A DNA stretch of 64,000 bases, from the NCBI GenBank assembly GCA_951406725.2, contig OX597824.1:77438001-77502000 (forward strand). The letters are read 5' to 3'. The DNA is from Octopus vulgaris. Its lineage: Eukaryota. A program made the translations under genes and the position numbers. Every line of letters begins with the position of its first letter. The stretch's first letter is position 1. Positions 18,839 to 54,405 of the stretch are shown here, piece after piece. The notes beneath the pieces are model-generated. The model was given only the letters and a program-made list of their open reading frames with translations, made no database searches and was not told the DNA's origin.

Positions 18839-18909
18839 CGGTTATACCTAGGTTTCAGATTTCTTTAACAAATAAAATAATTTGCTAGGCGAATCCTCAT
18901 CAGTAACCG
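18839..18909 (-). ncRNA. Type I hammerhead ribozyme motif
   Basis: Minus strand: cggtta CTGATGA ggatt...aatct GAAA cctagg TA taaccg. Perfect 6-bp stem I, palindromic stem III, GUA site. Confidence 0.85.
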
Positions 18910-20127
18910 TCCCTTAAAAACTAACTTATAATTTAGAGACAAATAACACGTGTCTCATCATTATATGTACACATTTATATATATATATATATATATATAT
19001 ATATATATATATATATACACATATATATATATGTGTGTTTGTATATGTATATATATATATATATATATATATATATATATATATATATATATATTTTATA
19101 TATGTATATCAATGTGACAGTGGTTGCAGTGGTAGATTGGTATGTACACCCAGATGTTTCAGTGAATTTTCAAGTCTTAAGCCACCATTGTAGTAAAGGC
19201 AATTAACGGTTTGCGTCACACAGCCACCCACATACAAACGCTTGCAGAAGAAAGATGCTTCATATGACTTCTATATTAGAATCTGTTATATTATCCTGTC
19301 ATACACATCACTTGTAGACAGCTTTTAACATAATTCAAATTTCCATGCCGCCTTAAACGTGGATGTTCTATTAAAATACAAACTATAATGCGGTAGTTAT
19401 CATGAAAGAAACCATCACATTGCCTTTTGGTGCAAAATGCACTCTTGTTTAGCAGGGAGATAAATTCCCACCACTTCCAGCGCCGAGGTCACTAGATCAA
19501 GTAATTTCCACATTTCTTGGTCTTATCAATGATGGACGTTCGACCGCTAGAAATAGCAGCTATTTATCCCTCGCCATCGTTATATAGAATAACAGAGGCA
19601 GATAAGCCAGTGAGCTTGCTAAGATTTAAGTACATGATCCTACCAATATGTCATCAATTGTGATCCGCATGTATGTATGTGTGTATGCATATATATACAA
19701 ATATATATGTATGTATGTATGTATGTATGTATGTATGTATGTATGTATGTATATATATATATATATATATATATTTTAGATAGATAGATAGATAGATAGA
19801 TGTGTAGATATATATATATATATATATATATATATGTCTGTATGTGTGTATATATATATACGTATTGTAAGAGGTATGTGTGTGTGTGTACGTGTGTATC
19901 TTTATTCCTTTTCAGTTTTCATCTACTCAAATCCACTCACAAGACTTTGGTCGACTCGAGGCTGTAGCAGAAGACACTTGCCCAAGATGCCGCACAGTAG
20001 GCCTGAAAGCGGAACCATCTGGTTGGGAAGCAAGCTTCTTACCACACGCCCACACTTCTATCTATTTATCTATCTATCTATCTATCTATCTATCTATCTA
20101 TCTATCTATCTATCTATCTATTTATCT

Positions 20128-20450
20128 AAACAGGAAGGAAGAGCCATTTTCATCAGACTTGTGGGTATGGCGAAAGAATGTATCTGGTGGACGAGTCTGA
20201 AAGGATTACAGACAAACACTTTCCTCTCTGGTCAATCTCTCATCAACTTCTTCAAGTATCACTTGAAAAATAAAGTGAAAGTAAAGAGGCAAGTTTTGTC
20301 TAGCGAATGTTTAAAAAAAAGATGGGTGAATGTAGCAAGGATGGCACGTATGAATGACGAAGCCACCTTGAGCTTGATCCCATGAAACCCAAGCTTTACT
20401 TTGTAATTTATCCCCTCTGTGTTCAGCCCTGTGTGGATAATAAAGAAACA
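20128..20450 (+). mobile_element. 5'-truncated Tx1/L1-type LINE 3' end inserted in (TATC)n
   Basis: IFIRLVGMAKECIWWTSLKG...CLKKRWVNV resembles the L1/Tx1 ORF2 C-terminus. A short 3' UTR ends aataaagaaa; (TATC)n on both sides. Confidence 0.65.
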
Positions 20451-21324
20451 TATCTATCTAGATACATACATACATACATACATACATACATACATACATA
20501 CATACATACATACATACATACATACATATCTATAAACACGCACATATCTATAAACAAACGATCTTATACACATACTGTATATGTTTATGCTGCTGTACAC
20601 ACACACACGTATATTTATTTATGTGTATATAAAATTCTGTCAAAGGGTTTGTAAATATGTTCCCAAGTAAACAAACATTAAAACTATTTGCACAACATGG
20701 TCGATTCACGCACTTTCATCATACATACACAAATACATACACCCCACCTCACATATGTATATATATATATATATATATATATATATATATATATATATAT
20801 ATATATATATATATATATATATATATATATATATATACATATATATATATATATATATATATATATATATATATATATATATATATATATATATACTTAT
20901 ATATATATATATATATATATATTATATATATATATATATATATATATATATATATATATATATATATACATATATATATATATATATATATATATATATA
21001 TACTTACATATATATATATATATATATATATATATATATATATATATACTTACATATTGTTGTGTGTTCATGTGTGTATGTTTGTGTGTGTGTGTGTGCT
21101 TACTTTAATATGATATTATATTTATTAACATGAAATAAATTATGTCTCTGAAACTCAGCTCAAAGCCAGAGGCTAGTGAAATAACTAACACGCAGCTACA
21201 TACTTCCTGCCGCCTCTGTGGTAATGACTTTGATGGGGAGAAATCATAATGATTTATGATGTGATATTTAATCTTAGTTCTTAGGCGAACTCAAGGCACA
21301 CCGTTTAAACATTATCACATGTTA

Positions 21325-21990
21325 GTACATACATGCATACATTCGTGCTTACATACATACATACATACATACATACATACATACATACATACATACACAC
21401 ACACACATACATGCATACATACAAACATACATACATACATACATACATACATACATACATGCATACATACATACATACACACACATACATACATACATAC
21501 ATGCATGCATACATGCATACATGCATACATACATACTTATATACATACATACATAATTGCACACAAACACACACATACATACATACATGCAAACATACAT
21601 ACATACATAAACACATACATACATACATACAAACATACATATATACATACATACATACATACTTACATACATACATACATACATACATAAACACATACAT
21701 GCATACATACAAACATACATATATACATACATACATACACACACATACATACATATATACATACATAAATGCATACATACATACATACATACATACATAC
21801 ATAAACACATACATGCATACATACAAACATACATATATACATACATACATACTTACATACATACATACATACATACATACATACACACACACATACATAC
21901 ATACATACATAAATGCATAATGCATACATACATACATACATACATACATACATACATACATACATACATACATACATACATAAATGCATA
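21325..21990. repeat. Long degenerate (TACA)n tract
   Basis: Direct inspection; similar tracts at 17655-17818 and 50005-50357. Confidence 0.95.
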
Positions 21991-22413
21991 CGTATATGCC
22001 TGCATATATAGGCGTGTCGTGAGAAGTTTTCTGCTTCCTAACCAGATGGTTGTGGGTTCAGTCTCCTAGCATGCCACGTTGGACAAGAGCCTTCTACCCT
22101 AGCACCGGGCCGACCAAATTCTTGTGAGTGGATCTCGTGGACATAAACTGAAAGAAGCCTGTTGTGCACACACACACACACACACACACACACACACACA
22201 TGCATGTAAGTTATAATTACAATTAAAGCCTAGATATAAAATTTTAAAATTTAGCATCCAAGCCGGCAGAGCCCGTTCACCTCTTACAGCTACCAGACGT
22301 CATCCGCAGTAAATGGCGTTTTGTCGTAGGATCTACGTTAGGAATTCCTCGGTGCTCATTGAGTACATTCTAAATGATTGATACGGAAGCCAGAGTGTAC
22401 GGGAAAATTTATT

Positions 22414-22523
22414 TATCACAACAACCGTTTCGGCAAACAGCTGCACTGTTCCCTTGTAGGTGAGGAACGATGTAATGAAATCGAATGCACTCCATATTGC
22501 AGAAGAAACCTCATCAGGTGACA
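22414..22523 (-). ncRNA. Type I hammerhead ribozyme motif with long stem II insert
   Basis: Minus strand: tgtcac CTGATGA ggt...gcc GAAA cggttg TT gtgata. Stem I pairs with one G-U; GUU site. Confidence 0.7.
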
Positions 22524-52445: not shown

Positions 52446-52521
52446 AATGCATACCTCGGTTTCGGTCTTAACAAAAGAATTACTTGCATAATTCAAGTGT
52501 CCGTGACTTCTTCAGTACATT
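52446..52521 (-). ncRNA. Type I hammerhead motif, copy 1 of 546-bp array
   Basis: Minus strand: aatgta CTGAAGA agtc...gacc GAAA ccgagg TA tgcatt. Confidence 0.75.
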
Positions 52522-53144
52522 CGGTCCTCGAGATGCAAACCGCAAGACTAACCCCAGCTCTCTGTGTCAAGACAGACACGTGCTTAGTCTTACTGATTAC
52601 ATCGGGAATAAAATTTCAAATGTCTTGGTTCTGGCGCGCTAAGAGACTCCTGAAGCGAAGGGCTGCAGTGAATAATTCACTGCGGGTAATGCTTACAACT
52701 AGGGAACGTATTTATTTAAATATTCAAAAATTGAGGGAGATAAATTAATATTAATTTTAATATCAATTTAAAACCAGTAGTCCAGCATTCAAAAAATCTG
52801 AGGAGTCAGAGAAAATTCAAATATATGTGTATATTGGCAGGGCTGGCCTGCTAGGTAGCCGGCCAGAATGCTAGAGAAAGATCATCAACGATCAAACTAC
52901 AAGGGAAATTCTCTAGAGGAAGAATTCAGCGAACACCAGAAAATATTTAAATAAATACGTTCCCTAGTTGTAAGCATTACCCGCAGTGAATTATTCACTG
53001 CAGCCCTTCGCTTCAGGAGTCTCTTAGCGCGCCAGAACCAAGACATTTGAAATTTTATTCCCGATGTAATCAGTAAGAATAAGCACGTGTCTGTCTTGAC
53101 ACAGAGAGCTGGGGTTAGTCTTTCAGTTTGCATCTCGAGGACCG

Positions 53145-53220
53145 AACGTACTGAAGAAGTCACGGACACTTGAATTATGCAAGTAATTCTTTTGTTAAGA
53201 CCAAAACCGAGGTATGCATT
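53145..53220 (+). ncRNA. Hammerhead motif, copy 2 of 546-bp array (GAAA>AAAA, likely inactive)
   Basis: aacgta CTGAAGA agtc...gacc AAAA ccgagg TA tgcatt. Confidence 0.65.
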
Positions 53221-53690
53221 TAAGTCTGTTTTTTATTTAATTTTTCATATGTCCTGCCCGCCAAATTTGGTTCTGGTGTTCGCTGAATTCTTCCTCTAGA
53301 GAATTTCCCTTGTAGTTTGATCGTTGATGATCTTTCTCTAGCATTCTGGCCGGCTACCTAGCAAGCCAGCCCTGCCAATATACACATATATTTGAATTTT
53401 CTCTGACTCCTCAGATTTTTTGAATGCTGGACTACTGGTTTTAAATTGATATTAAAATTAATATTCATTTATCTCCCTCAATTTTTAAATATTTAAATAA
53501 ATACGTTCCCTAGTTGTAAGCATTACCCGCAGTGAATTATTCACTGCAGCCCTTCGCTTCAGGAGTCTCTTAGCGCGCCAGAACCAAGACATTTGAAATT
53601 TTATTCCCGATGTAATCAGTAAGATTAAGCACGTGTCTGTCTTGACACAGAGAGCTGGGGTTAGTCTTGCGGTTTGCATCTCGAGGACCG

Positions 53691-53766
53691 AACGTACTGA
53701 AGAAGTCACGGACACTTGAATTATGCAAGTAATTCTTTTGTTAAGACCGAAACCGAGGTATGCATT
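53691..53766 (+). ncRNA. Type I hammerhead motif, copy 3 of 546-bp array
   Basis: aacgta CTGAAGA agtc...gacc GAAA ccgagg TA tgcatt, exactly 546 bp after copy 2. Confidence 0.7.
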
Positions 53767-54301
53767 TAAGTCTGTTTTTTATTTAATTTTTCATATGTCC
53801 TGCCCGCCAAATTTGGTTCTGGTGTTCGCTGAATTCTTCCTCTAGAGAATTTCACTTGTAGTTTGATCGTTGATGATCTTTCTCTAGCATTCTGGCCGGC
53901 TACCTAGCAGGCCAGCCCTGCCAATATACCCACACACACACACACACATATATATATATATATATATATATATATATATATATATATATATATATATAAT
54001 ATTTTAGGGAATATTAATCCTAACTTACAGGGAAAAAATTCAATTTAGAAATACTAAATCAAATTTCACACAATATAATATATATATATATATATATATA
54101 TATATATATATATATATATATATATATATATATATATATATATATATATTAGAAAGAACCACCTTTTATCTATTCAAAATAAACAACTGAATTACACCAT
54201 CTAGAAAATTACATATAGAAATATTAAAATTAAAATAACAATAAAATACCAATGATTAAGTAAATTGCAAAAAATAATATAAACGTATATAATTGGTAGA
54301 A

Positions 54302-54405
54302 TAACGACACGTGTTTCGTGGCTATATTTAAGAAATGATTAAAGTAAAAAAATTAATAGTAGTAGTAAAATCACTTCGATATAAATATAGCCACTCATCA
54401 GGTTA
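54302..54405 (-). ncRNA. Type I hammerhead ribozyme motif (canonical core)
   Basis: Minus strand: taac CTGATGA gtggctatattt...aaatatagccac GAAA cacgtg TC gtta. Perfect 12-bp stem II, palindromic stem III, GUC site. Confidence 0.9.

Follow-up and report, generated by a model that had tools for sequence, protein, structure and literature searches.

Hammerhead ribozyme motifs in a 64-kb stretch of the Octopus vulgaris genome and their relation to Penelope-like elements and non-coding retrozyme units

A 64,000-nucleotide stretch of the Octopus vulgaris genome (assembly GCA_951406725.2, contig OX597824.1, forward-strand positions 77,438,001 to 77,502,000; hereafter the window), rich in microsatellites and short interspersed nuclear elements (SINEs), carries ten hammerhead ribozyme motifs, named here by their positions in the window (18839, 22414, 37169, 47515, 48266, 49517, 52446, 53145, 53691 and 54302). 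Their eight stem sequences are those of eight dispersed repeat families (F1 to F7 and F10). Very probably, the motifs represent minimal hammerheads of type I that lie in terminal repeats of Penelope-like elements (PLEs): three at truncated 3′ ends of Hydra-clade PLEs, six in four kinds of short non-coding tandem unit that the proteins of such elements likely copy in trans, and one (22414) that we place in neither group. The elements are as follows, with arms described by whether they terminate at the long or the short of two preferred 3′ end points.

18601..18968, minus: F1, incomplete copy of a non-coding unit of ~466 bp that repeats head to tail; one arm only, flanked by (TA)n on either side
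18837-18911, minus: F1 hammerhead, predicted cut after 18845 (GUA), helix III ACCUAGGU, G.U at 10.1-11.1
22204..22604, minus: F2, old element with approximate upstream limit; hammerhead 22412-22525 with decayed helix III; inverted 34-bp piece at 22697-22730
37024..37537, minus: F3, ~483-bp non-coding unit; main arm 37024-~37387 (short end), inverted arm 37390-37537 (long end)
37167-37230, minus: F3 hammerhead, AUC triplet, extra A before GAAA family-wide
47312..47858, minus: F4, assigned as an older Hydra-clade PLE 3′ end; main arm 47312-47734 (long end), inverted arm 47732-47858 (short end)
47512-47604, minus: F4 hammerhead, GAAG mutation in the window copy
48002..48498, plus: F5, ~542-bp non-coding unit; main arm 48225-48498 (short end), inverted arm 48002-48227 (long end)
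48265-48341, plus: F5 hammerhead, predicted cut after 48332 (GUU)
49312..49819, plus: F6, assigned as a young Hydra-clade PLE 3′ end; main arm 49456-49819 (long end), inverted arm 49312-49447 (short end)
49516-49605, plus: F6 hammerhead, C3U being the sole difference from the parent L121 in 364 bp
52162..53932, both strands: F7, 546-bp units, ~1.4 on minus (52162-52941, long end) joined to ~1.8 on plus (52942-53932, short end)
52444-52523 (minus), 53143-53222 (plus, G12A) and 53689-53768 (plus): F7 hammerheads, A.C at 10.1-11.1 family-wide
53996..55547, minus: F10, assigned as the last ~1.6 kb of a long AT-rich 3′ untranslated region (UTR) plus the terminal repeat of a Hydra-clade PLE; single arm
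54298-54409, minus: F10 hammerhead, 13-bp stem II, predicted cut after 54306 (GUC)

Motif architecture, controls and density

A check of the window verified all ten motifs at the positions and on the strands given by an earlier model-made reading of the DNA letters (the sequence-only reading), whose count of eight distinct stem sequences also held. In the same order, their cores start at 18903 (−), 22517 (−), 37222 (−), 47596 (−), 48273 (+), 49524 (+), 52515 (−), 53151 (+), 53697 (+) and 54401 (−). That these are minimal type I hammerheads of the PLE and retrozyme kind was borne out: helix I is open-ended, helices I and II are paired, and 31/32 of the first four stem I positions pair across the eight families, the exception requiring a 1-nt bulge. 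The core, C3UGANGA9...G12AAA15.1...U16.1H17, had been called near-constant, which describes 7/10 copies; the other three carry private mutations that are not family traits (GAAG in 47596, C3U in 49524, G12A in 53151), and stem I has a mismatch in 53151 and 53697. Uninterrupted pairing in stem II runs to 3-13 pairs; F1, F3 and F7 have G.U or a mismatch at 10.1-11.1. In alignments of fetched copies, whose rows include the window's own copies and some duplicates, both halves of the core are intact in 12/15 rows of F1, 11/20 of F2, 20/20 of F3, 12/21 of F4, 14/17 of F5, 21/25 of F6, 18/20 of F7 and 38/46 of F10. Helix III is palindromic, perfectly or nearly so, and its monomer hairpin has a free energy of 0.0 in 10/10 copies; the self-dimer energy reaches −5.0 to −11.4 kcal/mol for nine of them and −1.8 kcal/mol for the decayed 22517 copy, in agreement with the tiny palindromic stem III and probable dimer architecture of the sequence-only reading.

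Could the motifs be chance matches in AT-rich, repeat-rich DNA? A first structural descriptor found four perfect-core motifs and seven with at most one core defect in the window. In 24 dinucleotide shuffles of the window, perfect cores occurred once in total, and matches with one defect allowed occurred 14 times (0 to 3 per shuffle), so that the looser class alone can reach three matches per 64 kb by chance; the reversed and the complemented window gave none. Motif frequency was therefore above that of the dinucleotide shuffles, the control that the sequence-only reading had proposed. A second descriptor that allows a bulge finds six of the ten motifs, gaining 49524 and losing two; the two descriptors (seven against six) disagree at the margins, and their union covers 8/10. 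The remaining two, 53151 and 53697, are near-identical copies of 52515 with the stem I mismatch, 53151 also having G12A. An exact 20-mer from the F10 core gave 227 genome matches against 0 for its control. In a sample of 39 stretches of 10 kb taken at round-number positions (390 kb), the second descriptor found 20 motifs, 12 of them perfect-core (seven of these in one array), against 0 in the reversed or complemented sample, and the union found 29 against 1 reversed and 1 complemented, with ~2/20 and ~7/29 matches, respectively, resembling chance. These controls refute coincidence, to which we give practically no credence.

Rfam listed no hammerhead in the window among the matches listed (150 of 383) and, at the gathering score, none in nine loci; as the compact L194 motif described below was missed as well, this test carries little weight, and we take the misses as insensitivity of the models rather than absence of hammerheads.

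The union of descriptors counts eight motifs in the 64-kb window, where the sample predicts 4.8 (Poisson p ~0.11). Because this density is close to that of the genome-wide sample, the window is no special cluster or niche. Scaled to the 2.8-Gb genome, the sample implies roughly on the order of 100,000 motifs, with a wide error because matches cluster. Published hammerhead counts reach up to 120,000 in axolotl, >6,000 in a coral and ~5,000 in a mussel. Another genome pattern search gave 424 matches against 7 for its control, but its 20-50-nt gap is shorter than the 55-77 nt of the main families, and it therefore supplies no count. First-look candidates for the window families, which are not copy numbers, came to 2,951 for F1, 512 for F2, 2,431 for F3, 4,473 for F4, 1,950 for F5, 1,542 for F6, 1,303 for F7 and 1,438 for F10 genome-wide.

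Parent elements and non-coding units

Motifs 47515 (F4), 49517 (F6) and 54302 (F10) are assigned, by comparison with other loci, to 5′-truncated 3′ ends of Hydra-clade PLEs encoding reverse transcriptase (RT) and endonuclease. For F6, 39/40 scored places besides the window's own match align over 363 bp at ~100%, and three matches spaced 3,624 bp apart mark a tandem unit (locus L121, 99.9% identity) with an 899-codon open frame (895 amino acids [aa] from the first Met). L121 differs from the F6 arm in the window at 1 of 364 bases; F6 is a very young family with an intact parent. The L121 protein has RIRWL and SDKT, lacks CCHH, and has CNLCVSE and RCPH (CxxC, CxH) around the endonuclease E and N, which are the Hydra marks given in section 11 of PMC8557442. 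By eye, the protein agrees with the Hydra rows in the supplement of PMC8557442, and it is 23% identical to the Neptune protein of this genome; the clade assignment is based on the motifs together with this by-eye comparison with the published alignment. Pfam gave no match on the L121 protein, but many of its 119 homologues, which include an Argonauta protein, carry PF26215 or PF28514.

For F10, loci L185 and L186 align collinearly for 4.7 kb (88%), from a Hydra open reading frame (ORF) through into the window's F10 sequence. Parent motifs are RIKWK and SDKT in L185 and CSLCNNE and KCKH in L124, and the F10-parent ORF is 42% identical to that of F6 over residues 11-475. A 3′ UTR of ~2.3-2.8 kb lies between this ORF and the terminal repeat (L185, L186, L124). 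A single ORF with RT and C-terminal GIY-YIG thus stands upstream of the hammerhead on the same strand in L121, where it is intact, and in L185, L186 and L124 for F10. For F4, with the L121 protein as query, collinear remnants of a Hydra ORF lie just upstream in 9/15 other loci. The CxCX5C linker is present in the F10 parent (CTCRDKSTC, L124) and absent from F6 (L121) and from the F4 remnant read (L180).

Neptune was considered as the parent of F10, as an RT fragment adjoins F10 at one locus (L008/L018), and was rejected: the Neptune families to which this fragment led differ in their terminal repeats and do not match the window families.

In contrast, motifs 18839, 37169 and 48266 and the trio 52446/53145/53691 (6/10 motifs) are assigned to four non-coding retrozyme units of ~466-546 bp. 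Tail-to-head periods are 466 and 473 bp for F1 (L058, L064), 483 bp for F3 (L170) and 542 bp for F5 (L102), the latter two measured at one locus each, with the same tail-to-head junction in further F5 loci. F7 forms 546-bp head-to-tail arrays of up to >4 units at 97-99% identity; it is a young family. Within the F7 unit, the longest ORF is 40 aa in sense and 64 aa in antisense, and tblastn with three PLE proteins gave no match in the units of F1, F3, F5 or F7. F5 and F7 are homologous along the whole unit, their stem I differing by compensatory pairs. A short motif, TGCTAG..CCACTGG, is common to F1, F3, F5 and F7 ~55-60 nt before the long end and was not seen among the ORF-bearing ends examined. 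A Hydra ORF beside F3 (L171/L233) was rejected as its parent, as it lies on the opposite strand and has its own, different hammerhead at its end; it is a nested insertion. Contigs from four runs that we guess to be RNA cover parts of F7; they show no strand, ends or level and are not used as evidence.

The sequence-only reading inferred several families of non-autonomous elements that share a (TA)n niche and would be mobilized in trans; taken to its full extent, this proposal covers all eight families and makes the niche special to the window. That reading had seen no Penelope RT or GIY-YIG ORF there, and indeed tblastn with the same three PLE proteins gave no window match. Both this absence and the four families of short non-coding tandem units speak for the proposal. 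However, F4, F6 and F10 run into Hydra ORFs at other loci, which refutes the proposal for these three autonomous families; since their parents are found elsewhere, too much was inferred from the lack of an ORF in the window. With the niche also unsupported by motif density (29 in the 390-kb sample), we regard the proposal as a whole as scarcely credible. The search for parent elements that the sequence-only reading called for led to Hydra ORFs or their remnants for F4, F6 and F10 and found no parent for F1, F3, F5, F7 or F2. Its refutation clause on copies that are just truncated ends of autonomous PLEs applies to the window copies of F4, F6 and F10.

Alternatively, these four units could be local, DNA-level tandem duplications (minisatellites) of PLE terminal repeats that were never retrotransposed, and local amplification of PLE termini into tandem repeats has been proposed (bioRxiv 10.64898/2026.07.22.740005). 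F7 copies, however, occur on many chromosomes, are 97-99% identical and are each truncated at a random 5′ position; they show inversions, two fixed 3′ ends and (TA)n flanks at 14/16 ends, a footprint that is the same as that of the autonomous F6. We therefore judge a minisatellite origin highly improbable.

Several other hammerheads were noticed. Within the window, two short 3′ ends of another Hydra family face each other across a (TA)n tract at 24363-24586, retaining the 3′ half of stem II, GAAA and a CAUAUG helix III (intact relatives in L185, L199 and L213), and fold-back relatives of F10 and F3 with half or no hammerhead left lie at 61634-62268 and 10485-10790, respectively. An eleventh hammerhead at 59877-59925 (+), core 59887, which the sequence-only reading overlooked, has A3-U8 in place of C3-G8 (AUGAAUA), a 2-bp stem II and a CCGG helix III, with 0 matches in controls; it forms the 3′ terminus of an older Neptune family, and its motif recurs in L026, L028 and L047. 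A young intact Neptune family (L043-L046, L050, L054) has U3-A8 and an extra A. The U3-A8 pair has been described (PMC4209133), and our literature search for A3-U8 found nothing beyond it. L050 (C1:223078800-223086300) is an intact young Neptune-type PLE with a 380-aa ORF1, a 752-aa RT and GIY-YIG ORF, 340-bp terminal repeats at 99.4% identity and (TA)n flanks. At L194:2300-4560, an array of 359-bp units carries one compact hammerhead per copy, five on one strand and two inverted, and is assigned on this layout as a classic non-LTR retrozyme (one without long terminal repeats [LTRs]) with PLE-type inversion. Hammerhead families in L222, L226, L048, L224 and L233 have U opposite U or C at 10.1-11.1 and a CGAUCG or CAAUUG helix III, one of them being the end of a Hydra ORF. 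Two of the 39 sampled stretches (L207:96 and L224:9809) hold a U3-A8 family with a GGGG/CCCC stem II and a CGCG helix III.

Insertion footprint and the role of the ribozyme

Targeting of (TA)n is real. A (TA)4 run lies within 30 nt of 116/170 outer 3′ ends compared with 450/7,800 random positions (5.8%), although some of the counted loci are the window's own copies or duplicates, which tells against our reading; by family the figure is 21/21 ends in F6 and 14/16 in F7 and is lower in older families (8/20 in F2). In the window, (TA)n stands at one end or more of 7/8 elements, 22414 being the exception. The sequence-only reading placed the motifs in fold-back elements; five elements of the window are clearly two-armed, but 18839 and 54302 lack a second arm and 22414 has only 34 bp of one. 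In each family, 3′ ends fall preferentially at two points separated by 75-190 nt (151 nt in F6). Among 45 two-armed loci counted by hand, 26 combine one long and one short end, one is long/long, two are short/short and 16 are ambiguous; all five clearly two-armed elements in the window follow the rule of one long and one short end. This footprint of 5′ truncation, partial tandems, an inverted 5′ copy, a tail at one end and a (TA)n target is found in autonomous and non-autonomous families alike. An inverted copy, a 30-40-bp tail at one end and (TA)n are published traits of PLEs (PMC8557442), and in vitro mapping has shown that the tail is bounded by two internal RT start sites (PMC11167929).

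We propose that a tandem or partly tandem copy would be transcribed, after which the PLE protein would nick both strands of (TA)n DNA; the target bias is observed here and the chemistry is taken from the anole Poseidon in vitro. Reverse transcription would then begin downstream of the ribozyme, at either of two fixed internal positions, the two 3′ end points being read as RT start sites by analogy with PMC11167929. Priming from both nicked ends would generate two opposite arms, both 5′-truncated and usually one long-ended and one short-ended; the arm pattern is observed, and the priming mechanism is our interpretation of it. Cleavage by the hammerhead would require a dimer joined through the palindromic helix III, or help from protein, and would trim multimeric transcripts to unit length and possibly to circles. 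Most inserted copies were templated by RNA that was uncut or re-ligated at the cut site. Cutting by the hammerheads, release of unit-length or circular RNA, and movement of the short units by Hydra-type proteins are all steps we infer. For related elements, cleavage has been reported as weak and confined to dimers, with opposite-strand pairs and a palindromic helix III (PMC4209133); cutting of both strands of AT-rich DNA, internal RT starts and a protein-assisted hammerhead that is dispensable for insertion have been described in vitro (PMC11167929).

Several observations weigh against our reading. Free folding misses the hammerhead fold for several monomers, and the usual G10.1-C11.1 pair is replaced by A.C in 18/18 intact-core copies of F7, by A opposite A or G in 20/20 copies of F3 and by G.U in 8/12 copies of F1; the A.C pair in F7, like the extra A in F3, is a family-wide trait. 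A monomeric minimal hammerhead from Schistosoma did not cut (PMC4209133), and 8/9 dimers of Xenopus retrozymes stayed uncut in vitro (bioRxiv 10.64898/2026.07.22.740005). Partial F7 copies show no excess of 5′ ends at the predicted cut (1/49 within 3 nt, with 0.6 expected), and inserted copies extend across the predicted cut site, which argues against an important role of cleavage. No autonomous partner of F1, F3, F5 or F7 emerged by tail similarity to six PLE ends (z ≤3.6 compared with ~20 for F5-F7). Finally, F2 (22414) is old, at 73-83% identity to its other copies, and a search of 15 further loci and two extended stretches turned up no upstream ORF and no tail-to-head junction for it.

An alternative hypothesis is that the hammerheads are mostly catalytically silent, and that the fold and palindromic helix III are selected as a signal for protein binding or RNA dimerization in elements that spread from uncut transcripts. 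Hammerhead mutants left insertion by the anole Poseidon in vitro unaffected and no reads ended at its cut site (PMC11167929); the F7 5′ ends, the spread of young F7 despite an A.C mismatch beside the core, and the palindrome kept in every family fit this hypothesis too. In contrast, all eight families, as well as the sampled ones, retain the catalytic core with stems that are unrelated to each other, and Neptune ends in this genome show U3-A8 and A3-U8 as compensatory changes of a catalytically important pair, which points to selection on an active fold. We consider silence unlikely, albeit with enough in its favor to be taken seriously. More speculatively, and with considerable doubt, the palindromic helix III might dimerize the RNA and load two RNAs onto a dimer of the PLE protein, so that each nicked (TA)n end primes on its own RNA (one from the long start, one from the short), which would explain two-armed insertions of Hydra ends and retrozymes alike; on this reading, (TA)n targeting would also need no zinc linker, as the young Hydra protein without it still hits (TA)n every time, and ~100,000 long-armed hammerheads invisible to Rfam would be the record of this process.

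The window contains further features beyond the hammerhead elements. A 302-aa Tc1/mariner transposase frame (Pfam HTH_Tnp_Tc3_2, DDE_3) occupies 33112-34020 (+). A 515-aa proline-rich frame with an 18-bp repeat at 39641-41188 (−) and a 220-aa frame with a similar opening (C..C..WNVS) at 63151-63813 (−) are possibly host exons or paralogues. A 97-bp tandem repeated 14 times and head-to-tail arrays of a 174-186-bp SINE-like unit lie at 6899-8263, 8883-9569, 13393-14242 and 22900-23265. At 50668-51000 (+), a frame without a Pfam match ends in an IPIIIGAL motif; we take it to resemble the end of a restriction-endonuclease-type non-LTR element.

Comparison with known systems

The finding is in itself ordinary, being published PLE and retrozyme biology, and its value is as material. 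A very young, intact element of the Hydra clade and a young 546-bp unit without coding capacity occur in one genome and share their insertion footprint, so that the long-suspected mobilization of retrozymes in trans by PLEs can be put to a direct in vitro test. Craig et al. (PMC8557442) tie (TA)n targeting to a linker that is absent from the young Hydra protein, and still 21/21 of its ends lie in (TA)n. As long stem II domains hide the ribozymes from Rfam, the number of hammerheads in genomes of this kind may be greatly underestimated. The architecture is already in print (PMC4209133, PMC8557442, PMC11167929, bioRxiv 10.64898/2026.07.22.740005): palindromic helix III, fold-backs, two alternative 3′ ends and (TA)n preference are all published for PLEs, and the departures are the long stem II, tails of 75-190 nt and (TA)n targeting without a zinc linker. 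A literature search for hammerheads with Penelope in octopus or cephalopods found only Craig et al. (PMC8557442) relevant.

With the Hydra clade, the C-terminal endonuclease-positive (EN+) PLEs that include Hydra-1_Obim (PMC8557442), the elements share a single RT and GIY-YIG ORF, DKT, the lack of CCHH, CxxC and CxH, a hammerhead in the terminal repeat, (TA)n targets, partial tandems, an inverted 5′ copy and a tail at one end. They differ in that the F6 unit, at 3.6 kb and 895 aa, exceeds the generally <3 kb of published Hydra elements; that F6 lacks the CxCX5C linker and still targets (TA)n at 21/21 ends; that F10 has its ~2.3-2.8-kb 3′ UTR; and that the tails of F4, F6 and F10 measure 75-150 nt compared with 30-40, with stem II spanning 55-77 nt. 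By eye, F6 is distinct from Hydra-1_Obim in both protein and hammerhead.

Animal non-LTR retrozymes (PMC7229834; bioRxiv 10.64898/2026.07.22.740005), which have been proposed to be derived from and moved by PLEs, resemble F1, F3, F5 and F7 in being non-coding and low in GC, with units a few hundred bases long that are joined head to tail and each carry a single type I hammerhead. The octopus units differ in their long-stem-II, PLE-type hammerheads, non-canonical 10.1-11.1 pairs in three families and mostly dispersed insertions of one to two units with PLE footprints. The main text of the 2026 preprint (bioRxiv 10.64898/2026.07.22.740005) covers 31 vertebrates, three insects and one anthozoan.

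The minimal PLE hammerheads of PMC4209133 likewise have a short helix I, a longer helix II, a small palindromic helix III and many stem families per genome, and occur mostly as single copies tied to truncated PLEs, with opposite-strand pairs 100-700 bp apart. The stem II domain here is much longer (28-79 nt), and our estimate of ~100,000 motifs compares with 2,000-9,000 in schistosome, coelacanth and frog, which were obtained with other descriptors. The anole Poseidon element PAc (PMC11167929) also cuts AT-rich DNA on both strands, has two internal RT starts that bound the tail and carries a terminal-repeat hammerhead. It belongs to a different clade, however; its hammerhead overlaps the ORF start and its reverse transcription begins inside the ORF, whereas in F6 the long end lies ~40 nt, and the predicted cut site ~260 nt, before the ATG.

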